Positions 24,663 to 52,883 are shown, counted from the stretch's first letter. The stretch is 64,000 nt of DNA from an uncultured Gammaproteobacteria bacterium (GCA_964442455.1 CAYTZB010000001.1:85910-149909); one strand, 5' to 3'. Program-made: numbers and translations. The notes: generated from the letters alone by a model not told the origin.

Positions 24663-25346
24663 ATGACAAATTTCAAATTCCCCTTAATACTTTTGATGCT
24701 TTTGGTACTTTTGGTACCCTTTTCAGGTTCTATCAAAGTAAAAAAAATTACCTGTAAAACTCAATATGGTCCGTGTACAGCAAGCCTTGAGGAGCAGTTA
24801 TCGCGGCTCATGGGAGCACGTCTTTTGACAGTCTCAACGCACGCGATAGAGGATATTGCATTATCATTACCCTCAGTGCGTGAAGTCCATGTTTATAAGT
24901 ACTTTTACGGGAAATTAGAGGTTGTGCTTAACATCACCAAACCTTATGGTGCCATTCAACTTCGTCTTCCGAATGGCGAACTCTCTCAACAATTATTTCT
25001 TGTTGACCAGGGGGGGCGCAGAGTGGGGACAACAGATGTCACTTCTTTACCAACTCTCGTTATTCCTTCTTCCCTTATGAGTATTTCCGACTACAATCCT
25101 AATTTATCACCTTACCTTGGGGTTGCCGACCTTATGAACAGGGCTCGAGGTATAAAAACAGTTGAGTTGACGGCTGACGCACTCATTTTTCGAGTTGAGA
25201 ACGTCGTCGTGTGGTTCCCGCAAGAAACTATAGACCCTCGTCTTTTAGTCGGCTCTTTACAATTTATCCTTGCCCGTTCTACAATTGAGGGCAAACAACC
25301 TGTGAAAATAGATATGAGATTTAAAAATCCAGTTGTTGTATTTTAA
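24663..25346 (+). CDS. ftsQ: FtsQ-like cell division protein (TM + POTRA-like)
   Basis: 227 aa with a single N-terminal TM helix, in the position between murG and ftsA. Sequence similarity is weak, so the call relies mostly on context. Confidence 0.5.
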   Translation: MTNFKFPLILLMLLVLLVPFSGSIKVKKITCKTQYGPCTASLEEQLSRLMGARLLTVSTHAIEDIALSLPSVREVHVYKYFYGKLEVVLNITKPYGAIQLRLPNGELSQQLFLVDQGGRRVGTTDVTSLPTLVIPSSLMSISDYNPNLSPYLGVADLMNRARGIKTVELTADALIFRVENVVVWFPQETIDPRLLVGSLQFILARSTIEGKQPVKIDMRFKNPVVVF

Positions 25347-25470: not shown

Positions 25471-25538
25471 TTATAACAGCATTCAAGAAAACTCCCGACT
25501 TTTAGTCGGGTGATGAATTGAACGCTGATATGTCATAA
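25471..25538 (+). mobile_element. MITE-like hairpin element, short form, copy 2 (abuts the ftsA start codon)
   Basis: 68 bp, TTATAACAGC...GATATGTCATAA. It equals the long form minus the segment between two ATGTCAT direct repeats. Confidence 0.7.
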
Positions 25539-25541
25539 GTT

Positions 25542-26810
25542 ATGGCTAAAGGAAAAGTTATTGCCGGAATAGATATTGGTTCTTCCAAAGTTGCGACCGT
25601 CATAGGCAGTGCAAATCCAGAGGAAGAAGTACTACAAGTTTTGGGAGTGGCGTCTGTTCCTGCTCCGCCTGATGGAATTAAGAAGGGGCAAATTGTTGAT
25701 ATTGAGAAAGCCTCTGGGGCGGTTGTAGCTTCGGTTGAGAAAGCAGAACGGATGGCGGGGTTTGCACTCGATAACGTCGTCGTTGTTATTAATGGTGGAC
25801 ATATTCAGGGTCAAAACTCTCATGGGGTTGTTGCAATATCCTCCCCGGAGGGAGAGATAGAAGGAAGTGATGTTGAGCGGGTCATTGATGCCGCGCGTGC
25901 GATATCTCTTCCAGCTGGTCGCGAAGTTATTCATGTGCTCCCTTGTGAGTTTATTGTAGATGGGGAGAAAGGGATAAAGGATCCGGTGGGAATGAGTGGG
26001 GTGCGGCTTGAGGTAGAAGCGCATATTGTAACCGCGTCAACAACTGCCATTCGCAATTTAACCAAGTGTGTAAGTGAGGTGGGAGCGAGAATTTCCGGTG
26101 TGGTGTTCTCGGGGTTTGCCGCCGCCGCATCGGTGCTTTCTGATACCGAACGGGAACTAGGAGTCGTGTTAATTGACCTTGGAGCGGGGACGACCTCAAT
26201 TGCCGTTTTCACCGATGGCGCACTGGTTCACTCGCGAGTGCTTCCTATTGGTTCAAAAAATATTACCAATGATTTAGCTATAGGACTGCGCACCTCGCTT
26301 GAGAGTGCTGAGAAGATTAAAATTTCTCTCTCCGCAGCAAGTAAAAAAGACAAAGAGGAAGACGAGATAGACGTGTCGGGGTTGGGTGTTGATGGAGGGG
26401 AACGGACTGTGTCAAAAAGGACCCTTTCAGAGGGGATTATACGGCCTAGACTCAACGAAATTTGGAGTATGGTAGGGATGGAGCTCAAGGCCACGGGTCT
26501 TGGAGGGAGAACCCCGGCAGGAGTGGTGATTACCGGAGGGGGAGCGTTAACGGTAGGAGCGGTTGAGTCAGCACGGCGAATCTTAGCCCTTCCTGTTCGG
26601 GTGGGAATTCCCACCGGTATTTCGGGATTGGTTGACGATGTCTCAACGCCCGCATTTGCCGCAACGGTTGGGGCGGTTGCGTGGGCAGCACAAAACGTTG
26701 CCCCTCCTTCGGGTTTTCGTATTGGTCAGTTCACCCGTCCCTTCGAAAGCCTCCCTGTAAAAGGAGTGGTAGGCAAGGTGGTTGAGGTTATAAAAGGATT
26801 GCTGCCATAA
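25542..26810 (+). CDS. ftsA: Cell division protein FtsA
   Basis: Actin-like ATPase motifs GIDIGSSKV and LIDLGAGTTSIAVF, with the characteristic C-terminal region. Confidence 0.9.
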   Translation: MAKGKVIAGIDIGSSKVATVIGSANPEEEVLQVLGVASVPAPPDGIKKGQIVDIEKASGAVVASVEKAERMAGFALDNVVVVINGGHIQGQNSHGVVAISSPEGEIEGSDVERVIDAARAISLPAGREVIHVLPCEFIVDGEKGIKDPVGMSGVRLEVEAHIVTASTTAIRNLTKCVSEVGARISGVVFSGFAAAASVLSDTERELGVVLIDLGAGTTSIAVFTDGALVHSRVLPIGSKNITNDLAIGLRTSLESAEKIKISLSAASKKDKEEDEIDVSGLGVDGGERTVSKRTLSEGIIRPRLNEIWSMVGMELKATGLGGRTPAGVVITGGGALTVGAVESARRILALPVRVGIPTGISGLVDDVSTPAFAATVGAVAWAAQNVAPPSGFRIGQFTRPFESLPVKGVVGKVVEVIKGLLP

Positions 26811-26823
26811 AAGTTCATGGTTG

Positions 26824-26849
26824 AAGCGCGTCAGAAAACGCCGCTTTTC
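26824..26849 (+). terminator. Weak hairpin/T-tract after ftsA
   Basis: AAGCGCGT-CAGAAA-ACGCCGCTT forms an 8-bp stem with one bulge, followed by TTCG. The T-tract is short. Confidence 0.3.
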
Positions 26850-27021
26850 GATTAGCATACGAGGAATCAAAATTTTTTACTCCGTTGTCCCCTTGAGAAC
26901 TGCTAAAAATTTATTCACCTAAAACCTGAGGATATTTCTCGACTATAGGCTCATTTTGTGCTAAAATACGCTTGAAATGGTAGAAAAAGAAATCTTTTTG
27001 GTATAATTAAGGCAAAATTTT

Positions 27022-28794
27022 ATGATCGCTGAACGTCAAGAAAATAAAGCCGTTCAATTGAACGGTCGAGATTGGTTATCCCCTGAGGTTGATGATATTG
27101 CACGTCAAGCAATTAGAGATATGGTGCCGCAGAGATCTGAGGATGGTAATGGTTTGCATTCACAGGAAGAGTTAAATAATGCATTATCAATTTCTTCCTT
27201 TCGTAGAAATGGTCTCCTTGGAATGTTACATATAAAATTTGATGGCGATATTGAGCAAGCTTTAAGATTTGCATATCCTGAGATTTTTAGAAAACCACTT
27301 TTACATCTTGATGAACCTCATTATGGTGATCCTTTTCAAGAAACATGGAGGGAAAGAGAACGCGAAATTGAAGGCAGAATAATATCGACGATGGAAAGGA
27401 GTAGGTTAGGTCATATCTATTTCTACGATAATGAAGTTATTGATAGTGATCAAAAAGCAAGGAAACTTATGAAATTGGGTAGACGGGTCGAGCGCCATGT
27501 AAACCGAAGAAATACCCGTGAACGTCATCACGAAAAAATAGACGTTGACGAATGGCAGGGAAGAGAAAATGAAGATTTTCAAAGAGCAATAGTTCGTTTT
27601 CTAAAACTTGGTGATAGCGTCGCAGGTTTTCTCGGCAGCAACGATACTGAAATTCCACGTTCTATTTTAAATCGAATTGGACAACAAGGAGTATTTTATA
27701 TGATAGGTCGCAGAAATTATCCTTATAACGAACTCGCCGGTTCATTTCCTAACGCAAATAATAGAGGAATCGAGGACGAACTTTTAGCAAGAGCTCTTGA
27801 GTTGGGAGAGTCTTTAATATTGAACAACTACGATCAAGAACAAATAAAAAAAACACTTAACGGTCATAAAATCTATCCAGTTGTCTACAGACCTCCCAAT
27901 CTTCCTGAAGAAATTTCTCGACATTCTTTAAATGCTTTCATTGTGAGCGATCGAGTAAGGGAAATTTTGGAAGAATTTAGGGAAGATTTCCTATGGGCAA
28001 TAGATTCAGCTTTAAAACAAGGTGGATATTTAATTTTTCGAGAAAACGCCAGGCAACAGACAAATATTGAGTACTATGGCCAAGATCTTTGGTCTAGCAG
28101 ATATCAAAGAGTAGGGACGGGAACGAAATCGGCCCAATTAATGATTTTTCGTAAAGTTGCTACAGGTAATTCTATGGTTAGTATTTCTCAAACAGTTTCA
28201 GAAAGTTCTCAATCGACTGAAAATGAAGAGGAATTTGGAGTGTGTACTATTGAACATAAGTGGGAATTTGAAAACGGAGAAGGGGCTGATAAGCAAATTT
28301 ACGCAGCACTTAAGCATGTTATTGAACAAAAACATAGATTAAACGGGGAAGTTACAGAAGCTCAACAGATAGACGAGTTACTAAAAGGAACGTTGAGCGT
28401 AAGTTGGTTTAGGAAAACTGGGCTTTTGCCAATCTTATTTAGTCGGTTTGGCGGAAGTGTTGAAAAAGCAGCGGAGTTTGTTATAGAACATAACCAAGCA
28501 GGAAGAACTCCTCCAACTATTATCCAAAGATCTCCTGAAGGGGCAAAATCCTCTTATAATCTCTACGATCTTGCCAAAGAATTGGGAGTTAGGATAGATG
28601 TTATTAGAAAAACTCTAAATAATGCTGGTATAAAAGGAGTACAGTCACAAAGAAATAAAGGGAATTTTCACCCCCAAACAAGTAGAATGCAATTTTCTTA
28701 TCAGGAGTTTTTAACATTAAGAGATGTATTACGGAGGGATTTAAATGTAGAAAAGGCTACCAAGGAAAGGAGCGATAATGCAGAGAGAATTTGA
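27022..28794 (+). CDS. Hypothetical 590-aa protein with two copies of a ~75-aa module shared with the SNF2-sigma protein, plus a C-terminal HTH-like segment
   Basis: Module copies lie at nt 27073-27287 and 28261-28493 (W..(F/L)..., L(S/N)xSxF(R/Q)(R/K)xGLL...FxGxxxxAxxF). The C-terminus YNLYDLAKELGVRIDVIRKTLNNAGIKG is HTH-like. There is a 17-nt overlap with the next ORF. Confidence 0.7.
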   Translation: MIAERQENKAVQLNGRDWLSPEVDDIARQAIRDMVPQRSEDGNGLHSQEELNNALSISSFRRNGLLGMLHIKFDGDIEQALRFAYPEIFRKPLLHLDEPHYGDPFQETWREREREIEGRIISTMERSRLGHIYFYDNEVIDSDQKARKLMKLGRRVERHVNRRNTRERHHEKIDVDEWQGRENEDFQRAIVRFLKLGDSVAGFLGSNDTEIPRSILNRIGQQGVFYMIGRRNYPYNELAGSFPNANNRGIEDELLARALELGESLILNNYDQEQIKKTLNGHKIYPVVYRPPNLPEEISRHSLNAFIVSDRVREILEEFREDFLWAIDSALKQGGYLIFRENARQQTNIEYYGQDLWSSRYQRVGTGTKSAQLMIFRKVATGNSMVSISQTVSESSQSTENEEEFGVCTIEHKWEFENGEGADKQIYAALKHVIEQKHRLNGEVTEAQQIDELLKGTLSVSWFRKTGLLPILFSRFGGSVEKAAEFVIEHNQAGRTPPTIIQRSPEGAKSSYNLYDLAKELGVRIDVIRKTLNNAGIKGVQSQRNKGNFHPQTSRMQFSYQEFLTLRDVLRRDLNVEKATKERSDNAERI

Positions 28795-31700
28795 ATCTCA
28801 AAGAACGATAGAAATAACACCGGGCAAATCTCCAACTAATGAAGTTATAGAAAGGGTAGGTAGAGAAATAACTCACTGTGATTTGCTCCATATGTGGAAT
28901 TTTGAGGTGGATGGGAGGAACCAGCAAGAGATAGATGAAGAACTTCAGGAAGCAATAAGGCATGTTGTAACGTATACACATACCATCAATGGTGCAGAGT
29001 ATGGAGGCTACCTACCTGATGAGACACTTGAAGAAAAATTGAATTTAGCGTGGTTTCAGAAAGTGGGACTGTTAAAACCAGTGGCGTTGCAGTTTAAGGG
29101 TGAAATTGCAGATGTTGTTCGGTTTGCGTGGCCTGAAGGATTTCACCAGGAAGAGCAAGAGAGAGTCCAGGCGTTTCGTTTGAGACCAGATACAATTGAA
29201 TTTTGGCAGGAATTAAAGAAAGATCTAGAAGGAATACAAACGCCCAAAAATATGGCACTTTCAACTTTTATGATGTATTACGATCCTCGAACAAAAAGGC
29301 AATCTTATCTTGAGGGAGGTAAATATATATACCTTTACGGCCTCTTTTTTCAGGATACATTAGCTGAAGAGTCGATTCATAACCCGGTTGATTATTTAAG
29401 CTCCCGATTCAATCCACCTCGTGATAATCAAGAATTTATTGATCTAGTCAAGGAAACACGTGAGCTTGCGGAGATAAAGCTTCGTAAACCCTATGGAAGT
29501 GTTATGGACATACAAGAAAGGCTTGCAGATCCTAGTTTTTTGGAAGAGTTTGTAATAGATTTGAACGAATATACTGAAGATTTCACTTTTGCTAACTTTA
29601 TGCAAGGCTGGTTGAATTATACAACTCCCAATGGTGACATCATACGGTGGAGTGCTAGAGGAAAGTACAGAGAGCTTCTCAATGATCTTTTAGCACGAAG
29701 GTGGATTGCACAACTGGGCGAAAATGCCGGTTCTGAATCTACACCAAAAAAACCCGCTGAAATATTTTATGAAGCTGCTCCGCAGAACCTCAAACTTTTA
29801 CTTTTGGCGAAATTTCCGAAGGATTTTTCCCATCTTACACTCGAAAGTTTGGAACAGAGTCAGGTAGTGTCAGATGAAGTTCGTGCAATACTTGAAGAGA
29901 CCAGCTTACTGGGAGTTGATAGTCAAGATCGTATTTTAGAGACGCTTGGGAATTATATCTTAGCTAAACATAAAAATAATGAAAGTCTTAATTATCTTGA
30001 TGGTCAACGAATTAAGACGATTTTACTTCAAGTTTCTCAACAAATTCTTCCCGCAGTTATTAGAAGAGCTGCTTCTTCCAAAACGGAGAGCGTTTTAACC
30101 GATAGTCGCATAGTTCCTACAGTTTTGAGCGAAGCAAACTCAGAGAATCAAGAAGTTGCTGACTCTGCCCAAGAGTTGTTGGAATCTCTTAGGGAGGCGT
30201 ACTACTTTCCCCTGCTTAAAAGTTTACTTTACAAACCAACAGCGCTTTTTTGGACTTCATATTTAACTGAGCACCCCGAAGAGGTAACAGTTCCTCCTGC
30301 CATGTTAATTAATTTCCTTGAAAAGCATTTAAAAGGAAGAGTAGAAGAAATTGCTCTTCAAGGCGATCAAAAAGAGGTTCTTGGTTATTTAAGTCAAGAG
30401 GTACTTCCTAATGTCTATCGCCACTTTGCTGAAGTTGCTACCTTTGCCCAGACAATTGCTCACTTTAGAACAAAGGATATTGAAGGGAAACCTCAACATT
30501 TACTTTTTCACCAAGTAGAAGGAATTAAGAAATTGATCGAAGATAAAGGCGGAATTGTATCAGATGAACCTGGTACTGGCAAAACACTTATACTTGCGCT
30601 TTCTGCACTTAATCTGATGGACAGAAGCGGAATTGTTGGACGAGGTACACCTGGGCGCGCTTTAGTAGTTGGGACAAAATCAGTAATAGATAATTGGGAA
30701 AGTGAACTGGATGCACATATACGAACAGACTATATAGATGTTGTAAATGTCAACTTCACCAATCAGAAAGATAGACAAGTGAGTAGAGATGAGTTACAAG
30801 CCCGGTTACGTGAGCTAGAAAGATTACTTCGAAACCCTAGACATCAGAGACAAATGGTATTGGTCAATTACGATTTGTTCAGACACCCTACATTTAAAAA
30901 GATTTTGGGATCTTATCCGTTTGATTCTGTGATAGTTGATGAGGCACATAACGTTAAATCTCGGTTTCTTGAATCAATTAATACCTATGAGAAAAGCGAT
31001 GATTTACGGAGTAGCACGAGTGTAGCTAAAAGAACAAGGGGTCTTTATAGCTACATCAGAACTAGTCCTGACCTTTCTGTATTTTTTGCCACGAGTACAC
31101 CTTATGTTAAAGAGCTTGTCGAACCTCTTATTATGGCGCATTTAGTTAACGAACAACTTGTACCTAGAGAAAGGGTACAACAACTTATGGAAGATACTGT
31201 TGGAACTCACCAAGTATTAAGACAAGTGATGATTCGCAGAAAGAAAGAGGAGATAGCTGACTTACCACCTAAAGAAACGGTAGTAGTTCCGATTGATCTT
31301 ACTTTGCTTTCCGAGGAGGAGAAGCAAGAGTTTAAAGCAATAGCACAAGAGATTATGGAGAACGAAAATTTTGCTGCACGGTTTTATTCAATGCTTTCGC
31401 TTGAAGGTTTGGCCAAATATCCCTGGTTGACAGAAAAGGTTAAAGAGCTTATTTCAGATGGTCGCAAGGTAATTATCTTCACCCCCTTTGTGGTTGGAGA
31501 AAATCGATATACTGCGCCGATTAGTACCGCACGAATAGCAGCAAAATTAATGGGTGCAGGAATTCCAATCAACTCAGTTGCTGTTTTGGACGGAAGTTTA
31601 GATGAAGGAGAACGAATTAGTGTGCAAGGACGTTTTCGTAACCAGCGAGATCCGAAAGTTTTAGTTGGTAATTACATTACCGCAGGAGAGTCAATAACAC

Positions 31701-34700
31701 TCAACTCACCCACCAATAGAGCTACGGAAGTAATTATCTTTGTGGGGCCAAATACAATTACTCGCTATATTCAAGGGGTTGACCGAAGCCACAGAATTGG
31801 GCAAACAGAAAAAGTTACCATTCACATACCATATGTTACTGGAGATTTGCTTGGACGAGGTGAGACCTACGACGAAGCAGTAATTAAACGACTTATGGAT
31901 GAACTGGTAGTTTTTGGAGCTGTCGTCGACGGGCGATTCTTTATGGAGCCAAAAGATATCTATCAATCAATTATTCAAACAGATAGAGCAAAACCGAGAG
32001 GTAGTGTTGAATTTACACGAGAGCATCGACAACGATCAAGAGAGAGGCGACGTGGTCCTTATACACCTCGGTTGCCCGGAGAACCAACTCCAAGAGTAAT
32101 GATAAGTGAAGATGAGGTTATCGATTTTGGATGGATGCAAAATATTCGTGAGGTTGTTACTCGTGAGAGCGAGTCTGAACAGGATATAGTGAGAATGTAT
32201 CTAGAGCAGATAGGACAATACCCACTATTTAATCCGGATAATCCAAATCACGAAAGATTGGCGTTCGATTATTTTAAAAGTGACAGAACCCTTGATGAAT
32301 TAAAGATAGATTCAGAATTTCTTTCAATGATTAATCCGCGAGATAGAGAAGATTTTGGACGTGTTCTGACTGATAGCCAAAGTATTCAAGATTTAATTAT
32401 TAACTGTAATCTCCGCTTGGTAGTTTCAGTAGCTCGTCAACGTCAAGGTCGCGGCTTACCCCTTTTGGATTTAATACAAGAAGGAACATTTGGCTTAATG
32501 CATGCGGTTGAACTCTTCGAACCCGAGCGAGGAAATAAATTTTCAACATACGCAACGTGGTGGATACGCCAAAGTATAAACAGAGCGATCATGAATTCTT
32601 CGCAGACAATCCGATTGCCAGTTCATATGTATGAAAGAATTGGTTTGGCTCGGAGATTTGCAAGAGAATTTGAAGCTACAAATGGTCGCACCCCAAAAGT
32701 GAGTGAGCTGCGCGAGTTAGTTTTAACTCAAACAAAGTTTTCCGAAAGTGAAGTTGACTCTGTAATCGAAACCATTGCTTCAGGAGTTATGCAAATGGGC
32801 ACTTTGGACTTTGAGATTGGGGAAGATGGAGAAGATACATTATATGATGTCGTTGCCGACAAGAGAATGGATGTTGAAGCAACTGTTTTGGAAGAAACAG
32901 AGGATGATGAGCTGAATACTGAGGTAAAGAGGGCTCTGAAAGAGAATTTGGATGAAAGAGAAAGAAGAATAATAGAGTTAAGATTCGGTTTGGGTGAAAC
33001 AAGAGAGAGAACTCTAGAAGAAGTCGGACAAGAATTTGGATTGACACGAGAACGTGTTAGACAGATTCAGGAAAGAAGTTTAGGCAAACTTAGTAGAGAC
33101 AAACAATTACGCGCTCGGTGGGAAGGCGATGCTCCGAGTTTTGTGTATCATACGAGTGCAGAGCAAGCAGCCATCAGGTTAGGATTATTCAATAAGAAGC
33201 AAAGTTATGTCGAGAAAGTTGTCGCAGAGTTACCTCCCCATCTTCAGAGTGTGCTTAATCAACGTATTCTCAAAGCAGCATCTTTGATAAATGGAGATGC
33301 ACAAAATGGGACTTCCGAAGTGGATCAAAGTTATCAATTTACACTTGCACGACTTGCAGTATGGGAGAAGTTAGGGACACTTTATCCAGACGATTTAACT
33401 GACTCACGGCAACGTCGTGAAATATATGGAAAAGATTTTGGGCCATATTTTGACCTATCGCTTATGAAACGGTTGTATGAGCGAAGGGATGGTAGAGTTA
33501 GACTGTTAGATAATCGAGTGTTATCGCACTTTTTTGGATTTGGCGATGGTCAGAAACCCCTCTTAAGTGTAGAGAAAGTTACTCAAGAGCTAGGAATTCC
33601 ACAGGATACAGTTACCGCGGGTCTTCATAAGGGGTTGCAGGTACTTGAAGCTCCACCAGAGAAGAAAACCAGAGCAGAAGAGCTCAGCAGAGAACACAGC
33701 ATTGTTGCACAGGCGTTTCGCAATCAAGAGATTTGGGATCAAATTCCTGATAGAGAAAAAAGCATATTAACACTCTATTTCATACGTGGTGGCGATCAAC
33801 AAGTATTAAAAGAGAATTTTTCGAGAATTTTCGGGATTTCTCTGCCTGAAGTAGATGCACGAATAAACGCTGCAGTAGAGTTAACTGAACGACTTTTAAC
33901 AGAAATTCAGGCTAAACCAGAACGTCAACGAAGGGTAACAAGAGGAGAACTTAGAGATATGGTTGAAGGATTATTGAAAGAGTATCCTTGGTTGAGCAAT
34001 AGCGAAGTAACAGAGCATCTTTCAACAAAACTAAAACAAGATTTAAGCAAAGCTCGTGTTGACCAAGCGAGGAAGAGCTTGGTTGCCCTTGAGAGAGTAG
34101 AGTCACGGCGTGGAAAATTAGATATACTTGACTCAAGAGTCGAAGCATTACTACTCCAAGGATTAAAACCCCAGCAAATTGCTGAGAGTTTGGTTCAATC
34201 AGAAAAAAGAGTTATTGCTTCTATAAGAAGATTGATTAGCACAGGAAATCTTGATACCCAACTTATTCAGTGGAGAAACGATGGCCTTTCAAAGGAAGAA
34301 ATTGCTGAAAGAATAGGAAGTTCAGCTGTTACCATAGGGAGAAGGCTCCGGGTACATGTTGAATCTGGTGCTCTACCTTTCCATCCTCGTGATCCTCGGA
34401 CAGTTGATGATTCTGGAGTTACCGAGCACGTCAGAAACCTAGACGGTATGGTTGAGTCATTGATTCTTCAAGATCCAAAAATAAAAACTAAAGAAATTAT
34501 TGCTGCATTGGAACCTACAGTAGGAAAATACATGGCGGAATTAACAATCCGGAGAGCAAAGAAGCGGCTGGTAGCTGCAGGGAGAATACCTTCTCATTTA
34601 TTTAATCTTACCCATGAGGAAGCAGTAGCTTTAGATCAACAAGTAGAAGAATTGGTAAAAAACGGAAATCTCTCTTATAAAGAGATAGCTGCTGCATTGA

Positions 34701-34951
34701 ATCAGCCAATCAGCAGAATTAGAAATTCTAAAGAAAGACTTGTCAAGACTCGCAGAATTGAGCCTAATCCAAAGTATGTTGACAAAGGAGCTAGTGCAGC
34801 TCTAGAGGAGTACTTATCAACACATCATGGTGATGAAATTAATTTATCAGAGTTTGCGCGCTCTATTGGTATTAGCCGCGAACGCGCAAGCCAACTCTAC
34901 AAGCGGTTAACCAATTCGCAGCTTAAGGAATTAATGACGCGGAGGAAGTAA
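28778..34951 (+). CDS. Giant fusion protein: N-terminal shared module + SNF2-family ATPase + complete primary-type sigma-70 factor + C-terminal array of ~8 HTH-like units
   Basis: SNF2 motifs: SDEPGTGKT (nt ~30563), [11 protein letters not shown] (~30938), [17 protein letters not shown] (~31781). Sigma motifs: region 1.2 [16 protein letters not shown] (~32182), region 2 [49 protein letters not shown], region 4 [13 protein letters not shown]...[17 protein letters not shown]. It is a single uninterrupted ORF. Confidence 0.88.
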   Translation: [2057 protein letters not shown]

Positions 34952-34995
34952 GAAAGTTGCTTTTACGCTTCTTGTAAGCTATACTACACACCGAT

Positions 34996-36351
34996 ATGGC
35001 AATAGAGAAACTTTTTTCAAGAATGAGGCAAGATGCCCTCGATAGCGCTTCTGGCCTTTCTGAAGAGCAAGCACATTTATTGCGTGAGGGAAAGGTAGAA
35101 GATGCTGAACAGAGAATGAACCAGGTGAAAATCGAGATAGCTAAAGCAAAAAAGGTTAATAGGATCGTTGCTGATATGTTGGATATTTTACGTGCAGCAG
35201 GTTTTGAACAACCTCCTGCTGAGTATCTTGAGCAAGTAGTAGCAAGAGAAGTATCAACTCCCGAACCCGTTTATGTAAAAGGGCAAAAATCGGGTCTTTT
35301 TAGTTTCCTCGCTCGATTATTTCCTTCAAAACAAGAACAAATATTTATTCCTGGACGACCCATTTCTCCTCTTAATCTTGTCGAAGAAGTTATGGGATCA
35401 AGACCAGTTGTAGAGGAGACAAGCGAAGAAGTGAAAGAGATTGGAGATATAGATAGAGAAGGAGAGGAAGTGGTAGCGGCAGTACCAACTCCTCCAATTG
35501 AAGCCAAAAGAGTGAGAGGTGATTTTGTGGAGCGCGAAGAAAAATTAGTATACGCAGCTCTTGCTGTTAATCCTAATAGAGATGGATTTCAATTTGAATC
35601 ATGGAGGAGTGTGTGGCGCCAGGCGTTTTCTGATGCCTTCGAGAATATTACCGATGAAAGAGAGCGTGACGATAAAGAAAAAAATTCGCAGATAGCCTCA
35701 TATTCTGCCCGCAGTGCTATTATTGTCAAACTTCAAAGAGTCAAAACTAATGCTCAGGACATTCCCCCTAAAGTAGCGAGTTTTCTTGAATGGGTTAAAA
35801 CTCAACCAGAATACGTTAATCTAAGTGTTGATGATATCTCCCTAATTATACAAAGACAAATAACCTTTGATGAAATTCGTCAAAAGGCAAGCCAAGCAGT
35901 AAATATCTTGCAAATAGAATCGCAACCCACAGAAGAGCAAGCGGTTTCTGGGGAACAAACTGAGTCAGTTCCACAACTGCCCTCGATTCAAGCATCAGAA
36001 AGCAGGGCAACAGAGCCACAAACGCTACAGTTAACAGGGCCAGAGCTTCACTTGCTTGCGCAGAAGTTACTTCAGGCAGCGCCAGCAGTATTAGAAAGAA
36101 CAGGAATAAGAATTCACACTGCAGATAGAGAAGAGATAGGTGGAATTATGGGGCGGCTCGCAAGTTCACCAGAAACTCTTCGTGCAAGCGAAACTTCTCT
36201 TGAAAGTCTCACACAGAAACTTGCTGCATATCTAAAAGACAAAGAAAAAGTATTTATGGAAAATGTCAGCAATGAGGATGCTCAGTATTTGATTACGTTT
36301 GTTGCGGGTATCAGTTCTGAAGACCTATTAAAAGAGTTTTTAAGTAGTTGA
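34996..36351 (+). CDS. Hypothetical acidic 451-aa protein (third gene of the ftsA-ftsZ insert)
   Basis: It has its own TTGCTT-17-TATACT promoter (34957-34985), an N-terminal coiled-coil-like segment and E/Q/S-rich linkers. No family recognised. Confidence 0.6.
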   Translation: MAIEKLFSRMRQDALDSASGLSEEQAHLLREGKVEDAEQRMNQVKIEIAKAKKVNRIVADMLDILRAAGFEQPPAEYLEQVVAREVSTPEPVYVKGQKSGLFSFLARLFPSKQEQIFIPGRPISPLNLVEEVMGSRPVVEETSEEVKEIGDIDREGEEVVAAVPTPPIEAKRVRGDFVEREEKLVYAALAVNPNRDGFQFESWRSVWRQAFSDAFENITDERERDDKEKNSQIASYSARSAIIVKLQRVKTNAQDIPPKVASFLEWVKTQPEYVNLSVDDISLIIQRQITFDEIRQKASQAVNILQIESQPTEEQAVSGEQTESVPQLPSIQASESRATEPQTLQLTGPELHLLAQKLLQAAPAVLERTGIRIHTADREEIGGIMGRLASSPETLRASETSLESLTQKLAAYLKDKEKVFMENVSNEDAQYLITFVAGISSEDLLKEFLSS

Positions 36352-36407
36352 CGCTTCTTTCCTCTCACCCAGAGATTCCCAGATGGCGATACGGCTCACT
36401 CGACCCC

Positions 36408-36436
36408 TTGACAACTCCTGAAAATTTATCCACAAT
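36408..36436 (+). promoter_or_regulatory. Candidate ftsZ promoter
   Basis: TTGACA (36408-36413), a 17-nt spacer, then CACAAT (36431-36436). The predicted ~150-nt 5'UTR contains element E4. Confidence 0.55.
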
Positions 36437-36450
36437 AGGCCACAAGTGAA

Positions 36451-36590
36451 ATTAACCTAATTAACCTAATTGCTCTAATTGATCTAAATTTTGAAGATTT
36501 GTAGTTTAAAAATTGGGATTTATTTAGAAATTAGAATAATTAGAAATAAGCAGAGCTTGTTTCTCGCAAGCTCGAAATTAGAAATTTTTA
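36451..36590. repeat. Imperfect long palindrome of CTAATT / AATTAG phased units (element E4, homolog of E1) plus an internal 7-bp hairpin
   Basis: Left arm: ATTAACCTAATTAACCTAATTGCTCTAATTGATCTAAATT. Right arm: TTTAGAAATTAGAATAATTAGAAAT...GAAATTAGAAATT. The hairpin is GAGCTTG-TTTCTCG-CAAGCTC. Confidence 0.65.
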
Positions 36591-36592
36591 AA

Positions 36593-37720
36593 ATGGCTCT
36601 TGTTAAACCAGATACCACGCGGTTGGCAAAAATTCGAGTAATTGGGGTTGGTGGCGGTGGGGGGAACGCAATTAACTCCATGATCTCCCAAGATAAGATT
36701 TCCGGAGTTGAGTTCATTGCCGTTAATACAGATGCACAAGTCCTTCTCTCAAACCTCGCGTCCACAAAAGTTCAAGTTGGTGAAAAATTGACGCGCGGGT
36801 TGGGTGTTGGGGGAAATCATGAGCTTGGGAAACAAGCAGCGGAGGAATCAAGAGAAAAAATTAAAGAACTGCTTCTTGACTCTGATATGGTATTTATTAC
36901 TGCAGGTATGGGTGGAGGGACTGGAACTGGGGCTGCACCGATTATTGCCGAGGTCGCGCGTGAGGTGGGGGCGTTGACGATTGCTATTGTTACCAAACCT
37001 TTTGCCTTTGAAGGTGCACGGCGCGCAGTAGTAGGAGAAGAGGGAATTGAAGCGCTTAAAGGAAAGGTTGATACGCTCATTATCATTCCCAATCAGCGGT
37101 TGATGGATGTCATTGACCGGAAGGTGACGCTACTTGATGCGTTCCGCCTGGCCGACTCGGTGCTCTCGCAAGGTGTACAAGGAATTTCTGAAATTATCAC
37201 CCAACCGGGACTTATTAACGTTGACTTTGCGGATGTAAAAGCAATTATGACCCAAGCAGGCTCAGCGCTTCTTGGCATTGGTACGGGAGTTGGTGAAGCG
37301 CGGGCACAAATGGCAGCACGGGCAGCAATTTCCTCTCCTCTTCTTGACTTATCAATCGAGGGTGCAAAGGGAGTGTTGTTTAATATCTCGGGTGGCCCGG
37401 ACTTGACTATGGCGGAGGTTGATGAGGCAGCGCGAATTATCGCCGAGCATTCCGATGCAGACGCAAACATTATTTTTGGTGCATCAATTGACCAACGGTT
37501 GTCCGATCAAGTACGTATTACAGTTATTGCGACCGGTTTTGATGAGGCGCGGGCACGACTTGCGCAAATAACCCAAACCGCAGTCAAACCTCAACCAACC
37601 CTTGAGTCGACAGAAGAGACTCGTGGGGAAAACGAGGAGGAAGAAAAGGCAGAAGAACCCAAGGATGATGAGTTTGGAGAACGCTTCGAAATACCAGCGT
37701 TTCTAAGACAGGGCCGCTAG
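36593..37720 (+). CDS. ftsZ: Cell division GTPase FtsZ
   Basis: GVGGGGGNAIN, tubulin signature GGGTGTGAAPIIA, NTDAQ, and the C-terminal conserved peptide FEIPAFLRQGR. ATG 36593 is preferred; the ORF-track TTG 36491 extension runs through the palindromic repeat. Confidence 0.92.
   Translation: MALVKPDTTRLAKIRVIGVGGGGGNAINSMISQDKISGVEFIAVNTDAQVLLSNLASTKVQVGEKLTRGLGVGGNHELGKQAAEESREKIKELLLDSDMVFITAGMGGGTGTGAAPIIAEVAREVGALTIAIVTKPFAFEGARRAVVGEEGIEALKGKVDTLIIIPNQRLMDVIDRKVTLLDAFRLADSVLSQGVQGISEIITQPGLINVDFADVKAIMTQAGSALLGIGTGVGEARAQMAARAAISSPLLDLSIEGAKGVLFNISGGPDLTMAEVDEAARIIAEHSDADANIIFGASIDQRLSDQVRITVIATGFDEARARLAQITQTAVKPQPTLESTEETRGENEEEEKAEEPKDDEFGERFEIPAFLRQGR
37669..37707 (+). repeat. Direct repeat copy 1 (last 39 nt of the ftsZ body before its final 13 nt)
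   Basis: TGAGTTTGGAGAACGCTTCGAAATACCAGCGTTTCTAAG is identical to 40512-40550. Confidence 0.9.
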
Positions 37721-37781
37721 CTTCTAGGATAAAACCTATAATATTTCTTCTACTCTTTAGTTGATATGGTATACTATCGGC

Positions 37782-40514
37782 ATGATTGCAACAACCGAAA
37801 GAGCTATACCAATAGGATTGACTGGCGATATCTCAAAGGATGGAATTCTTTCTCCAGGAACACAAATAGAGCTTGATCGTCTCCAAACTAATGCGGCTGA
37901 TGCTTGCATGGAATATCTAGATAGAATGGCACCAGATGCACCATTTCCTCTAGTTTTTATGGCAACTGGCGTCGGTAAGGGAAAAATTATTCACGAACTG
38001 ATTAAAAGGCAAAAAGCTCGAAAACAAGACTCGAAGATTTTGTTAGTTACAGGTACAAAAATTGTTTTAGTTGATCAGACTGATCAAGCTTTAACTGCTT
38101 ATCAGCAAGAACAAAATGATTTTGATATGGATGAGGATCTTGAACTGGACCAGATGGATTTTGAAAAAGAAGCGTTTGGAGAATACACATTTGATAAGTA
38201 TGGTAATCCGGATGTGGATGTTCAACTGGCAACAATTCAAAGAATTCAAAGGCAGCATAAAGAGGGGAAACTTAATGCGAATGATTTCGATCTACTAATA
38301 GTAGATGAAGTACATAATGTAGGAACCCAGAATAGGTTTAATGCAATTGATAACTTTCAAAGGGTTGTTGGTTTTACTGCTACTCCATATCGCTACACTG
38401 GCCCAATGAAAACACCACAAAGTTATGGATTTGAAATAATTACTTCGCTGTCCCTTCCCGAAGCACAAGAAAGGAAAATTCTTCCGCCTCTTTATGCACT
38501 GCAGATTAATACATCAGAATTACTAAAAGACGAACAAATACCTACCACGAGAACTGGAAAGATCGATTATTCGAAACTCGAGAAAGTTCTCAAGGCACAT
38601 CCGGAATTAAGGGAATTCATTGCGAATAGAGTTGCACCAATTATCAATTTTGAAGGGAGAAGTTATAAAACTGTTGTAACTGTTAACTTTGTGTGGGAAG
38701 CCCTGGAACTTGCCTGGTTATTTAGGGATAAAGGAATTAAGGTTGGTTTAGCAGTTAATCAATATGCCGCAAAGAATATTGATACCAAAGAAATACCAGC
38801 ATTGGACACGATTAGGAGATATAAACTGCCGGAAGGCGATCCAGAAAGCCTCCAGGTTTTAATTTCTCCTTATGTTATTTCGGAAGGTTTTGATGCTCCG
38901 GCAACAGAGATTTTAGTTTGGGCGTCTCCAACTGATTCATATCTGCGATACACGCAATATACTGGACGGCTGGCCAGAAGACATTTTGGTAAAGCTTATG
39001 GACTAGTTGTTGATTGTTTATACCAAACAAGCCAGTATGGTTGGACCTACAACTTTGCAATGTGGATGAAGGGATATGTACAAGAGTTAGAACCTGGACT
39101 TTTATATCTTGGCCCGATGTCAGAAATCAAAGATGTTGAAGTACTTAGACGCATACACGAGATTTCGGATAATATCCATATTCGTGAATTACAAAGGGAA
39201 GGAATACTACCTATTCAAGAAAACGACTTGCCGCTTTCACAAAATTGGATTCGACCTCTTTTCCAGGGAGATTGGCTTAGATTAACTTCTTTAATCGATG
39301 AGATTAAAGAAGAGTATAGAATCACTGGTGAGGAGGTATTTAATCAACTATTCACAACCAGGCTTAGTGGTAATCAACTTGTGCTCGTATGTACAAATAG
39401 AGATATTTTTATTCAACGGCTAATAGACAAAGGTGCTAAACCAAAGGTTGAAAAACCACGAGAGGGAGAGATTCCTTTGACTCAGATTAATCTACCCAAA
39501 CTCTTTGTTGGTAATTTTGAAGATACTTTGAGACCTATGCTTAATTCAATAATGGCGCGTATTAAAAATGAAGATCCAGAGGAATACCAGCGACTCTTTG
39601 CCAAACGAATGCAGGGTAGGGAAATCTATGTTTGCACAAATAAGGATAGACTTATTCAACTTATGGTTGAAGCTGGCGCAAAACTCAGGCCAGGGACTAA
39701 GGTAGCAAAAGAGAAAATGCAAACTAGCGATTTTGCTCTTACAGCAGATAATCTCGGAGAAACTTTTATTACTGGAAGAACAAAGAAGATAAGAGAAGTA
39801 ATAAGGAAAATAAAAGAAAGTTTGCCAGAAGGGGACTCTTTATTTACTTTTAGAGAATACAAGTATGCCGATGTTGAGGTAGTAACTGATTTCGATAGAT
39901 TTGTGCAATTAATGCTACAAACTGGAGTCAAACTCAGACCAAAAAATTTTATTCCAATTCAACCAAATGATATACAATTAAGTAGGGATTTATTAAAAAC
40001 ATTTTTAGGGCAATGGCGTGAAATTTCTACAACAGCGCAGCGAGCTAAAGAAAGACTTGAAAGACAATTCCCCGATGACTGTGATACTCTTTTTGTAGTT
40101 AGGACAACGAGAGTCCAAAATAAACCTCTTTGGATTGATGTATGTACAGACAGGTCTAAATTTATAAAAGCAATGGTAGAGGAAGGAGCTCGATTGAGAG
40201 ATCAGGCAGATATTAACCTTCTACCTATTCAAGAAAATGATATTGTTTTGAGCTTTGAATCTTTCTATTCGATTTCTACTACAAACTGGAGTAAATTAAA
40301 AGTTGTAATTAGACGAATTAAAGATAGGATAAAAGAGGAAATGCCAGAGGAATTCGAAAAGTTATTTGTAAAAAGGAAAAACCGTCGGGGGAAAAGTGAG
40401 GTCTGTACAGATAGAGGTTTATTTATTAAGTGGCTTGAAGAAGAGGGTGTTAAGCTAAGGCAAATTCCGCTAGTTGTGCGACATAGAAGTAGTAACTCTA
40501 ATCGTAACTCTTGA
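37782..40514 (+). CDS. SF2 helicase (ResIII/DEAD-like N-terminal ATPase + helicase-C) with five tandem ~84-aa C-terminal repeats
   Basis: Motif I FMATGVGKGK, motif II LLIVDEVHNV, motif III GFTATP, motif VI QYTGRLARR. TGgTATACT lies 6 nt before ATG 37782. The repeats span nt ~39204-40465. Confidence 0.85.
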   Translation: MIATTERAIPIGLTGDISKDGILSPGTQIELDRLQTNAADACMEYLDRMAPDAPFPLVFMATGVGKGKIIHELIKRQKARKQDSKILLVTGTKIVLVDQTDQALTAYQQEQNDFDMDEDLELDQMDFEKEAFGEYTFDKYGNPDVDVQLATIQRIQRQHKEGKLNANDFDLLIVDEVHNVGTQNRFNAIDNFQRVVGFTATPYRYTGPMKTPQSYGFEIITSLSLPEAQERKILPPLYALQINTSELLKDEQIPTTRTGKIDYSKLEKVLKAHPELREFIANRVAPIINFEGRSYKTVVTVNFVWEALELAWLFRDKGIKVGLAVNQYAAKNIDTKEIPALDTIRRYKLPEGDPESLQVLISPYVISEGFDAPATEILVWASPTDSYLRYTQYTGRLARRHFGKAYGLVVDCLYQTSQYGWTYNFAMWMKGYVQELEPGLLYLGPMSEIKDVEVLRRIHEISDNIHIRELQREGILPIQENDLPLSQNWIRPLFQGDWLRLTSLIDEIKEEYRITGEEVFNQLFTTRLSGNQLVLVCTNRDIFIQRLIDKGAKPKVEKPREGEIPLTQINLPKLFVGNFEDTLRPMLNSIMARIKNEDPEEYQRLFAKRMQGREIYVCTNKDRLIQLMVEAGAKLRPGTKVAKEKMQTSDFALTADNLGETFITGRTKKIREVIRKIKESLPEGDSLFTFREYKYADVEVVTDFDRFVQLMLQTGVKLRPKNFIPIQPNDIQLSRDLLKTFLGQWREISTTAQRAKERLERQFPDDCDTLFVVRTTRVQNKPLWIDVCTDRSKFIKAMVEEGARLRDQADINLLPIQENDIVLSFESFYSISTTNWSKLKVVIRRIKDRIKEEMPEEFEKLFVKRKNRRGKSEVCTDRGLFIKWLEEEGVKLRQIPLVVRHRSSNSNRNS

Positions 40515-44877: not shown

Positions 44878-44878
44878 C

Positions 44879-45901
44879 ATGCGTATTGATGGTGCATTAT
44901 TGGGTGCGGTAATACTCCTTCTTGTAGTGGGCAATACTATTCTTCTCTCTGTTGAGCCGCGGCTTTTTCCGCTCCAATTTTTGTATATCGGTGCGGCCGT
45001 AGTTGTATTTTTCCTTGTTGCTAGAGTGGACGCTGCCGTATTGCGTGCCTTTGCACCCCTTGGGTATTGGCTAGTGATAATTTTTTTGGCAGTTACGTTA
45101 GTTATTGGAGTAATAAGTCATGGAGCAGTGAGATGGTTACCAATAGGACCTGTTACGGTGCAACCGTCTGAATTTGCAAAACCCGCTATTGCTTTAATGA
45201 CTGCGTGGCTCCTATCAGGAAATATTAAAAATAGCTTTTTAGCTTCTTTGTTGGTCAGCTTTTTAGCTTCTTTGTTGGTATTTATTCAACCAGATTTCGG
45301 AACCGCTGTGATTCTGGGTGTATCATGGTTGGGAGCTGTCTTAGCAAGCGGAGTATCGTTTAAAACTGTTTTTAGGTTTTTAATTTTTTTCATTCTTTTA
45401 ATTCCTTTAGGTTGGTTTATTCTAGCACCGTACCAGCGAGAAAGAATAACTTCATTTTTAAACCCGACGAGCGACCCCGCAGGTGCTGCGTACCAAGGAC
45501 GACAAGCAATGATTGCTGCCGGTTCGGGAGGACTCCTTGGCCGAGGGTTGGGACAGGGAAGTCAAACACAGCTTGCATTTTTACCAGCGCGCTCAACTGA
45601 CTTTGCATTCGCAAGCGTGGGAGAGGAGCTTGGATTCGTGGGGATGGCGCTCGTTTTGGTAGGATTTTTTGTGGTTTTTTTGAGGATTGTAGGGGTGTTA
45701 AGGGAAGCGCGCGAGCCGTTTGTGAAAGCTGCACTTGGTGGAATTTTTCTTTTTCTTTTCGCCCAAACAACGGTGAATATTGCCATGAATCTTGGTATGC
45801 TTCCCATCGCCGGTGTGCCGCTACCCCTTATTTCTGCCGGCGGCTCGGCGCTTGTCTCAACGATGTTAAGCTTAGGGATTGTCGTGGCTCTTCGGAAGTA
45901 G
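44879..45901 (+). CDS. rodA: SEDS-family protein RodA (second FtsW/RodA paralog)
   Basis: QPSEFAKP, QPDFGT, LPARSTDFAFASVGEELGF and PLPLISAGGSA motifs are present. It contains a 24-bp in-frame tandem duplication. Confidence 0.8.
   Translation: MRIDGALLGAVILLLVVGNTILLSVEPRLFPLQFLYIGAAVVVFFLVARVDAAVLRAFAPLGYWLVIIFLAVTLVIGVISHGAVRWLPIGPVTVQPSEFAKPAIALMTAWLLSGNIKNSFLASLLVSFLASLLVFIQPDFGTAVILGVSWLGAVLASGVSFKTVFRFLIFFILLIPLGWFILAPYQRERITSFLNPTSDPAGAAYQGRQAMIAAGSGGLLGRGLGQGSQTQLAFLPARSTDFAFASVGEELGFVGMALVLVGFFVVFLRIVGVLREAREPFVKAALGGIFLFLFAQTTVNIAMNLGMLPIAGVPLPLISAGGSALVSTMLSLGIVVALRK
45233..45280 (+). repeat. 24-bp tandem duplication inside rodA (SFLASLLV x2)
   Basis: AGCTTTTTAGCTTCTTTGTTGGTC followed by AGCTTTTTAGCTTCTTTGTTGGTA (23/24 identical). 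Confidence 0.9.
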
Positions 45902-51056: not shown

Positions 51057-51069
51057 GTACCAATTTTAA

Positions 51070-52850: not shown

Positions 52851-52855
52851 TCATA

Positions 52856-52871
52856 TATTCATATATGAATA
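52856..52871. promoter_or_regulatory. Second copy of the 16-bp perfect palindrome TATTCATATATGAATA
   Basis: Identical to 15363-15378. It lies in the GT4-GT2 spacer, 13 nt before ATG 52884. Confidence 0.4.
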
Positions 52872-52883
52872 GCAGATTGTGAT

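Follow-up and report, generated by a model that had tools for sequence, protein, structure and literature searches.

A SNF2-sigma70 fusion gene and two conserved partner genes between ftsA and ftsZ of a Patescibacteria-like bacterium

Gene organisation between ftsA and ftsZ

The window analysed here is a 64,000-nucleotide (nt) stretch of contig CAYTZB010000001.1 (assembly GCA_964442455.1, 85910–149909), numbered from its first letter, and the subject of this report is the three-gene module that occupies positions 27022–36351. The 9.8 kb that separate ftsA from ftsZ are filled by three co-oriented open reading frames (ORFs) on the plus strand, of 590, 2,057 and 451 amino acids, the second of which encodes a Swi2/Snf2 ATPase fused to a primary-like sigma-70 factor. 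All three lie where a first-pass annotation of this DNA had placed them, and Pfam identifies both flanking genes:

25542–26810, plus strand: ftsA, left neighbour, context only (Pfam FtsA 136 bits, SHS2_FTSA 115 bits)
27022–28794, plus strand: ORF590, first module gene (590 amino acids)
28778–34951, plus strand: SNF2-sigma70 fusion, second module gene (2,057 amino acids)
34996–36351, plus strand: ORF451, third module gene (451 amino acids)
36593–37720, plus strand: ftsZ, right neighbour, context only (Pfam Tubulin 163 bits, FtsZ_C 123 bits)

The likely start codon of ftsZ is the ATG at 36593 (MALVKPD...), the mechanically called ORF beginning at a TTG at 36491. The 17-nt overlap described earlier for the first two module genes is present in the sequence: the ATG of the fusion is at 28778, the stop codon of ORF590 is at 28792–28794, and the ATG is preceded, inside ORF590, by a strong Shine-Dalgarno-like stretch, AAGGAAAGGAG.

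The SNF2-sigma fusion protein

The fusion protein is laid out as follows:

28853–29152, plus strand: residues 26–125, amino-terminal module (Nmod), common to ORF590 by alignment
29153–30502, plus strand: residues 126–575, all-helical "mid" domain, also present in mid-sigma proteins and in mid-sigma proteins preceded by a winged helix
30503–31972, plus strand: residues 576–1065, Swi2/Snf2 ATPase core (Pfam SNF2-rel_dom, ResIII, Helicase_C)
32153–33112, plus strand: residues 1126–1445, sigma-70 regions 1.2, 2, 3 and 4, primary-like (group 1/2), from Pfam, NCBIfam and PDB matches
33113–34948, plus strand: residues 1446–2057, carboxy-terminal extension with several helix-turn-helix (HTH) units (Pfam on the segment)

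Both sets of domains exceed their Pfam cut-offs within a single ORF, so the fusion first noticed by reading the sequence stands. SNF2-rel_dom scores 59.2 bits (cut-off 24.9), Helicase_C 29 (23.5), Sigma70_r2 65.9 (24) and Sigma70_r4 83.2 (24.1), with sigma regions 3 and 1.2 just under their cut-offs (23.8 against 25.3 and 16.7 against 22, respectively). The ATPase core contains motifs I (DEPGTGKT), II (DEAH) and VI (QGVDRSHRIGQ), which nearly every one of the 22 fusions of the family described below keeps; a strict pattern for sigma region 2.4 is matched by about a third of these fusions, and one for region 4.2 by about two-thirds. The best PDB relatives of the core are HELLS, DDM1, ISWI and CHD1L. 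No RapA chain is present among its PDB matches at E ≤ 0.01, and no specific similarity to RapA, including its amino-terminal domain, was found. A basic linker of about 60 residues leads from the core to sigma region 1.2.

The sigma core matches TIGR02997 (Sig70-cyanoRpoD) from position 1 to position 297 of 298, and its matches to SigA structures in the PDB go down to 2e-51. The equivalog cut-offs for RpoD/SigA are not reached, with 217 bits against 354 for TIGR02393, 220 against 555 for NF004208 and 241 against 384.5 for TIGR02997. The segments YATWWIRQ and TRERVRQI, read by eye in the sigma core, contain the −10 and −35 contact residues of E. coli sigma70 with one change, T440N. Identity to the best ordinary sigma factors is 37–48%, from a word-index search that was non-exhaustive, missed the fusion itself and carried no taxonomic signal, and sigma domains within the family are 35–54% identical. 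Those of the core subfamily, including the one in P0041, a protein without SNF2 domain, are closer to each other than to ordinary sigma factors.

The carboxy-terminal extension matches Sigma70_r4 (6e-12), Sigma70_r4_2, HTH_24, HTH_23/38 and GerE in Pfam, with sigma region-4-like units near residues 1963–1984 and 2017–2043. Repeats are seen here when homologues are compared by BLAST; self-BLAST returned no internal repeats in the carboxy-terminus of the fusion. The mid domain is modelled, with good confidence, as all-helical (predicted local distance difference test score, pLDDT, of 77), and structural searches, BFVD among the collections, gave no informative neighbour for it.

ORF590, ORF451 and the shared module

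Nmod, a module of about 90 residues, is marked by the conserved pattern [C/H]-x3-H ... H ... H and by the motif WF-K-GLL, and profile searches returned no Pfam or PDB match for it. There is one copy in the fusion and there are two in ORF590, the first of them degenerate. The three proteins had been described as linked by a shared amino-terminal module, which holds for ORF590 and the fusion; in ORF451 the module was not found.

ORF590 starts with the degenerate Nmod (residues 12–125), followed by a domain with a class I methyltransferase fold (residues 175–380, approximately), the second Nmod (residues 404–490, with the pattern C-x3-H...H-x5-H) and a carboxy-terminal HTH (around residues 512–538). 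The HTH segments proposed for both ORF590 and the fusion are thus recovered as Pfam matches, weak ones in the case of ORF590. Its AlphaFold2 model has a pLDDT of 65.7 overall and of 70–90 over residues 175–380. With this model, Foldseek returned 327 PDB hits at E ≤ 0.001, headed by S-adenosylmethionine (SAM) methyltransferases with a probability of 1.0 and TMt values of 0.5–0.67, MnmM/YtqB and entries 3eey and 3dh0 being among the top matches. Pfam methyltransferase families match five of the six ORF590 family members weakly (E 0.007–0.06). Alignments inspected by eye show G-S-N-D-T / LGGxD as motif I and lack a conserved acidic residue after strand 2. As modelled, the central domain of ORF590 is a class I SAM methyltransferase fold, the SAM-binding motifs of which look degenerate in sequence.

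ORF451 consists of a conserved helical amino-terminus (residues 1–85), a variable acidic middle and a conserved carboxy-terminal part of about 115 residues. No known domain could be assigned to ORF451, which has no match in Pfam, PADLOC, PHROGs, NCBIfam or PDB, profile searches against PDB and Pfam included.

Recurrence of the gene trio

Among 5.8 billion proteins, the search for close relatives of the fusion returned only two, with 44–47% identity. When a profile of its amino-terminal 575 residues was run against 1.84 billion cluster representatives, 87 proteins were retrieved. By domain mapping these include 22 mid-SNF2-sigma fusions of 1,183–2,163 residues, mostly singleton clusters; mid-sigma proteins of about 1,000 residues, some preceded by ArsR/MarR-type winged helices; and two Nmod-sigma proteins of 467–486 residues. 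In all 22 fusion representatives, which come from independent assemblies, the fusion is a single ORF. A scan of JGI metagenomes gave one true relative, a truncated ORF of 886 residues on L084, a 3.6-kb contig that offers no informative surroundings. The 185,579 GTDB species genomes yielded 61 pattern matches, none of which encodes a relative; the patterns pick out the closest subfamily only, which makes this negative result weak evidence. Searches of IMG/VR, INPHARED phages, PLSDB plasmids and BFVD folds returned single-domain matches only, and a phage or plasmid origin of the module is not supported by the collections searched.

The contigs on which homologous modules could be viewed in their surroundings are these:

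L002: ORF590-like gene, fusion and ORF451-like gene, with the 17-nt overlap; the outer two genes run off the contig ends
L003: ORF590-like gene, fusion and ORF451-like gene, with the 17-nt overlap; followed by an unknown 123-residue gene and not by ftsZ
L089: 870-residue ORF590-like gene and 1,900-residue fusion, then the contig end; a divergent gene of the type IV secretion system (T4SS) family T4SS_pilin/TrbC lies upstream (47 bits)
L093: genes of 561, 1,597 and 380 residues, flanked by an rsmI-like gene and iPGM/enolase; uvrA, uvrB and lexA are close by
L098: genes of 620, 1,610 and 445 residues, with Crp-like, Replic_Relax, TrwB/TraG coupling protein, HTH_17 and large serine recombinase genes
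L099/L100 (L099 205–5458): 626-residue ORF590-like gene, 486-residue Nmod-sigma gene without mid or SNF2 and a 625-residue gene, with the 17-nt overlap

By BLASTP and phmmer, ORF590 matches the upstream genes in L002, L003, L089, L093, L098 and L099, and the sigma gene is followed by a homologue of ORF451 in L002, L003, L093, L098 and L099; the 625-residue third gene of L099/L100 carries the ORF451 carboxy-terminus. The 17-nt overlap is kept in L002, L003 and L099. Co-occurrence of the three genes, on which the earlier proposal of a linked set depended, is therefore found elsewhere: whole in L003, L093 and L098, with cut outer genes in L002, in minimal form in L099 and with at least two genes in L089. 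The trio is a conserved unit, occurring as such in unrelated surroundings on at least four other metagenomic contigs and represented by two genes on a fifth. Because the minimal operon is composed of Nmod and sigma, the mid-SNF2 block being confined to the longer versions, the sigma part is the core component.

The neighbourhood of the trio varies, and twice (L098 and L089) it contains hallmark genes of conjugative or integrative elements. In L098 (8995–15523), Replic_Relax is matched at 28.6 bits (cut-off 25.3), a 913-residue coupling ATPase is of the TrwB/TraG/HerA type, and the large serine recombinase has Resolvase (105 bits), Recombinase and Zn_ribbon_recom domains. Taken together, these neighbours suggest an integrative conjugative or mobilisable element in a Patescibacteria-like genome. 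No mobility genes are seen in L099/L100. The first-pass suggestion of a mobile-element module gains support from the neighbours in L098 and L089.

Host affinity and synteny of ftsA and ftsZ

Among the 185,579 GTDB species genomes, Candidatus Gottesmanbacteria and other Patescibacteria have the FtsZ proteins closest to that of the window, with 62–66% identity over residues 3–373. Since these are the nearest FtsZ proteins, the window host is, from its FtsZ sequence, a Microgenomates-like bacterium of the Candidate Phyla Radiation (CPR, Patescibacteria). In all the Patescibacteria relatives, about 200–370 nt separate the end of ftsA from ftsZ, and no match to ORF590, ORF451 or ORF917 (the gene directly after ftsZ in the window) is found in their 20-kb ftsZ loci. 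These nearest relatives, which at 62–66% FtsZ identity are distant ones, thus have no module between ftsA and ftsZ.

For 72 ftsZ loci enough upstream sequence was available: ftsA is adjacent in 53, three have gaps of 1.1–3.8 kb and 16 have no ftsA in reach. Direct adjacency, taken as the norm in the first-pass annotation, is indeed seen in 53 of the 56 related loci having ftsA at most 10 kb upstream of ftsZ, including every Patescibacteria relative, and in view of this survey the 9.8-kb separation in the window is exceptional. The gaps of 1.1, 2.8 and 3.8 kb belong to L022 and L023 (Armatimonadales) and L024 (Chloroflexia). In ftsZ loci of Firmicutes (L013, L019, L020, L026, L031, L037 and L041), the sigma part of the fusion matches two sigma genes about 1.1–3 kb downstream, in line with the known spoIIGA-sigE-sigG arrangement. 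Sigma genes beside ftsZ thus have precedent in Firmicutes, and those genes are unrelated to the module.

FtsA proteins that are 94–95% identical to that of the window are present in public data, on a 10.5-kb ENA contig (P0211) and a 36-kb Logan contig (P0213). Despite these relatives, no homologue of ORF590 or of the fusion above 47% identity was found among the 5.8 billion proteins.

Promoter-like motifs and base composition

The three promoter-like motifs quoted in the first-pass annotation are present:

26999–27007, plus strand: TGGTATAAT, extended −10-like motif and putative promoter, read in the sequence, 15 nt upstream of the ORF590 ATG
34957–34985, plus strand: TTGCTT-17-TATACT motif, within the 44-nt spacer ahead of ORF451, ending 10 nt before the ATG
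36408–36436, plus strand: TTGACA-17-CACAAT promoter-like site upstream of ftsZ

They stand as candidates rather than as evidence, the number of promoter-like sites in 25–42 kb not being above chance (30 found and 32.6 expected from shuffled sequence). Counts in a terminator scan were likewise not above shuffled expectation. No Shine-Dalgarno sequence is found before ORF451, the transcript of which would be leaderless if the putative TTGCTT-17-TATACT promoter is real.

The G+C fraction is 0.375 in ORF590, 0.404 in the fusion and 0.414 in ORF451, with 0.51 in ftsA, 0.49 in ftsZ and a window mean of 0.42. At third codon positions (GC3) the module genes have 0.25–0.30, versus 0.42 in ftsA and ftsZ. 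Low G+C had been noted as consistent with foreign origin; windowed analysis, in which the contrast is smaller than first estimated and the module only mildly below the window mean, does not make it clear evidence of this.

Junctions and flanking repeat

At the left junction, two contigs from other runs, L090 (window 25507–29082) and L091 (26679–29032), agree with the window without a mismatch, each running from ftsA through the spacer and ORF590 into the beginning of the fusion. This junction, which had been pointed out as a possible join between contigs, is thus continuous. The Logan contig L001 corresponds exactly to 26845–36478, from spacer to spacer, and its end at 36478, inside the ORF451-ftsZ spacer, is shared by L092, which comes from a second sequencing run. 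No independent contig crossing from ORF451 into ftsZ was obtained, exact look-ups of ftsZ (with two start codons) and of ORF917 being empty, which probably reflects other start choices by the gene callers. No 31-mer at the break points 26845 and 36478 is repeated within the window. The contig breaks at 36478 may reflect heterogeneity of the population, for example cells without the insert. The module is also carried by a 186,660-bp NCBI contig.

The longest direct repeat in 26.5–37 kb is an imperfect 39-mer, with 31 of 39 positions identical and a spacing of 9515, of which one copy lies in each of the two spacers:

26880–26918, plus strand: left copy, in the ftsA-ORF590 spacer, holding TTGAGA-17-CACCTA
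36395–36433, plus strand: right copy, in the ORF451-ftsZ spacer, overlapping TTGACA-17-CACAAT (36408–36436)

The repeat is confined to these two sites in 64 kb. Its score is 20; the highest among 1000 shuffles is 13.5, and none of 519 other window segments reaches 20. Direct repeats at the edges of the insert and an empty site in (distant) relatives are thus both found. Judged by its sequence, the TTGAGA-17-CACCTA element of the left copy is a decayed version of the ftsZ promoter-like element, which would then have been duplicated; the duplication would keep ftsZ expressed. Scans for tRNA and Rfam families found no RNA gene or tRNA target near the insert.

Interpretation of the module

We interpret 27022–36351 as an accessory sigma-factor operon of three genes, belonging to uncultured Patescibacteria and inserted into the ftsA-ftsZ spacer in this lineage, and assign this reading a probability of about 0.5. 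The operon probably moves between Patescibacteria genomes, travelling as a cargo or regulatory module of integrative or conjugative elements. An accessory nature is suggested by the variable neighbourhoods, some of them with mobile-element genes, by the flanking repeat and the low GC3, and by the rarity of the family, its fast-evolving sigma domain and the presence in public data of 94–95% identical FtsA proteins but of no close homologue of ORF590 or the fusion.

Several observations weigh against this interpretation. No recombinase, relaxase or other mobility gene is present in or near the module in the 64-kb window, and in L093 the genes around a homologous module are all of the housekeeping kind. 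Patescibacteria chromosomes commonly carry T4SS and pilin genes, so such neighbours are suggestive and not decisive. The flanking repeat differs at eight of its 39 positions, with longest exact runs of 8–10 nt, and the right junction, from ORF451 to ftsZ, where two Logan contigs end, lacks confirmation from an independent assembly. Low GC3 like that of the module is also found in the glycosyltransferase cluster and in a patch at 10.9–16.3 kb. Finally, the fusion is the only sigma factor encoded in the 64 kb available, with no second, ordinary rpoD seen there.

If the operon works as its domains suggest, the sigma core would bind the host core RNA polymerase and read near-consensus −35/−10 promoters, while the tethered SNF2 motor would sit on the DNA beside the polymerase and translocate on the duplex with ATP. 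Such a motor might strip bound proteins, free stalled or post-termination polymerase in the manner of the free-standing RapA, or aid loading or opening of the DNA. ORF590 and ORF451 may be stoichiometric partners or regulators, as the shared Nmod, conservation of the gene overlap and retention of the third gene suggest; for ORF590 this could involve Nmod-Nmod contacts and translational coupling. Insertion could have taken place by site-specific recombination at the ftsZ promoter region, or by duplication of that region, with ftsZ keeping its own promoter copy.

The alternative that survives best is that the fusion is the principal housekeeping sigma factor, a giant RpoD with an acquired SNF2 motor, encoded in an operon co-transcribed with the essential dcw (division and cell wall) genes. 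The core with regions 1.2 to 4 is primary-like, with the full-length TIGR02997 match, the strong similarity to SigA structures and −10/−35 contact residues that are almost those of sigma70; no other sigma factor is encoded in the window, the operon is co-oriented with the dcw genes, both halves are conserved over 22 clusters, and there are Nmod-sigma and mid-sigma proteins about as long as an ordinary RpoD. On the other side, the score is below every RpoD/SigA equivalog cut-off (217 bits where TIGR02393 requires 354), and the divergence of the sigma domains (35–54% identity within the family, about 43% to the best ordinary sigma factors) indicates evolution that is fast by the standard of a housekeeping sigma factor. 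Fusions are also very rare, with 22 representatives among 1.84 billion clusters; no member matched the closest-subfamily-specific scan patterns in the GTDB species genomes; close FtsA relatives exist, with no close homologue of the module detected; and some modules have conjugative or integrative element genes as neighbours. We consider a housekeeping role doubtful overall, and nevertheless leave it substantial weight because there is no mobility gene in the window, the L093 context is purely housekeeping and only 64 kb are visible.

Far less probable is an anti-phage or anti-plasmid defence system, in which a methyltransferase-like protein, a SNF2 helicase and a sigma-like regulator would act together as in MZA, DISARM, Zorya or Dpd. 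PADLOC gives partial matches, to MzaA on the sigma part (2e-47) and to ZorD, DpdE and DrmD on the SNF2 core, NCBIfam scores MzaA at 243 bits, ORF590 has its methyltransferase fold, and the module is island-like and patchy with an orphan ResIII helicase nearby. Yet these matches are to single generic domains, far under the family cut-offs (243 against 800 bits for MzaA). Only stretches of about 150–230 residues of the SNF2 core align to ZorD, DrmD and DpdE, at E-values of 6e-15 or weaker and with no partner matches; ORF590 and ORF451 have no PADLOC match, and no Mza match is found in ORF590, ORF451 or ORF917. There is no nuclease or other effector and no partner gene of those systems, the minimal module is without SNF2, ORF917 does not co-occur with the module, and the methyltransferase motifs of ORF590, read by eye, look degenerate. 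Of sigma replacement, mobile-element takeover and defence, the functions proposed in the first-pass annotation, defence is the weakest.

That a foreign contig was wrongly joined between ftsA and ftsZ, as the spacer-to-spacer extent of L001, the shared end of L001 and L092 and the missing independent ORF451-to-ftsZ contig could suggest, is very improbable given the mismatch-free left junction in other runs, the 186,660-bp contig holding the module, the break points free of repeated 31-mers and a flanking repeat that is a biological and not an assembler signature.

Comparison with known systems

With group 1/2 sigma factors (RpoD/SigA, RpoS and the group 2 factors of cyanobacteria and actinobacteria) the fusion shares the order of regions 1.2 to 4 and the near-invariant −10/−35 segments, and it is 40–45% identical to ordinary sigma factors. 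It differs from them in having no region 1.1, about 1,125 residues before region 1.2 and about 610 residues with HTH units after region 4, in scoring under all curated RpoD and RpoS cut-offs, and in belonging to a conserved operon of three genes, the other two of which encode uncharacterised partners.

RapA/HepA is an RNA-polymerase-associated, free-standing Swi2/Snf2 ATPase that recycles polymerase (PMC8501970; bioRxiv 10.1101/2024.09.28.614012). Like RapA, the fusion would be a bacterial Swi2/Snf2 protein coupled to polymerase, RapA by binding and the fusion presumably through its covalent link to sigma. Both have a large region amino-terminal to the ATPase, and that of the fusion could have a regulatory role like that of the RapA amino-terminal domain. 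Unlike RapA, which is not fused to a sigma factor, the fusion has an all-helical amino-terminal region, and its ATPase core has no RapA match in the PDB at the threshold given above.

MzaA of the MZA anti-phage system (NCBIfam NF041931) resembles the fusion in having a long amino-terminal region followed by sigma-70, and it gives the best NCBIfam and PADLOC scores on the sigma part. The alignment, however, covers model positions 470–705 of 726 only, and other Mza components are absent. Mobile elements and phages encode sigma factors, and the module is like these in placing a sigma gene with partners on an island, some homologous modules lying near conjugation or recombination genes. The fusion differs in being primary-like rather than minimal or resembling extracytoplasmic function (ECF) sigma factors, in being fused to an ATPase, and in having only single-domain matches in IMG/VR, INPHARED and PLSDB.

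ATP-dependent initiation is known from sigma-54 with its AAA+ enhancer-binding proteins and from XPB of eukaryotic TFIIH. The resemblance is one of analogy only, an ATP motor being coupled to promoter recognition or opening in each; sigma family, ATPase class and architecture differ from those of the fusion, for which a need for ATP would follow by analogy alone. In the full-text literature searched, no description of a SNF2-sigma fusion in CPR bacteria, or of this operon, was found. The components of the fusion belong to known superfamilies; the uncharacterised protein regions are Nmod, the mid domain and ORF451.

Both halves of the fusion are intact in at least 22 divergent clusters, which argues that the SNF2 and sigma activities work on the same polymerase molecule. 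As a natural, conserved combination of the two, the fusion is a ready-made construct for testing whether a translocase can assist or reset initiation. A bolder proposal is that the fusion functions in initiation, as the principal sigma factor of an uncultured Patescibacteria lineage or as the sigma factor of its conjugative elements, and that it links the recognition of promoters mechanically to DNA translocation powered by ATP; we regard this as unlikely. If true, bacteria would have a third way of initiating transcription, next to the ATP-independent one of sigma-70 and the AAA+-dependent one of sigma-54. A single polypeptide would then combine polymerase recycling of the RapA type with the reloading of sigma, under the control of a new zinc-finger-like domain, Nmod, and of a pseudo-methyltransferase partner. 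Were the fusion the only primary sigma factor of the organism, the picture of basal transcription in part of the Candidate Phyla Radiation would change. The locus also illustrates that a large insertion is tolerated between ftsA and ftsZ, which are among the most conserved bacterial gene pairs.

Neighbouring genes

Upstream of the module, Pfam recognises a full dcw set on the plus strand, comprising ftsI, four Mur ligases, murB, murA, mraY, ftsW and murG. The ftsQ position is taken by an ORF of 227 residues (24663–25346) with a weak POTRA match, at 15.3 bits and with a cut-off of 23.

Directly after ftsZ lies ORF917 (37761–40514, plus strand), the amino-terminal half of which is a ResIII/SF2 helicase. 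It matches PHROG 16 at 2e-37 and, weakly, PbeA and type I/IV restriction proteins, and its GC3 is low (0.27). In its carboxy-terminal half, about five repeats of some 90 residues, each ending in "...C/VTD..FI..L.E.G.KLR", were read by eye; self-BLAST returned none of them. This helicase had been thought to form one system with the three genes, a proposal that we do not retain, as ORF917 is in none of the other module loci, nor is it found in the relatives. The ftsZ gene thus has lineage-specific genes on both sides, and ORF917 is independent of the module.

Further downstream, a second gene of the FtsW/RodA family follows ileS (44858–45901), and a ParB gene is located at 46.6 kb (46582–47448). 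The low-GC3 patch at 50007–54535 encodes a Kelch-repeat protein, a methyltransferase and three glycosyltransferases, and is probably a variable surface-polysaccharide island.

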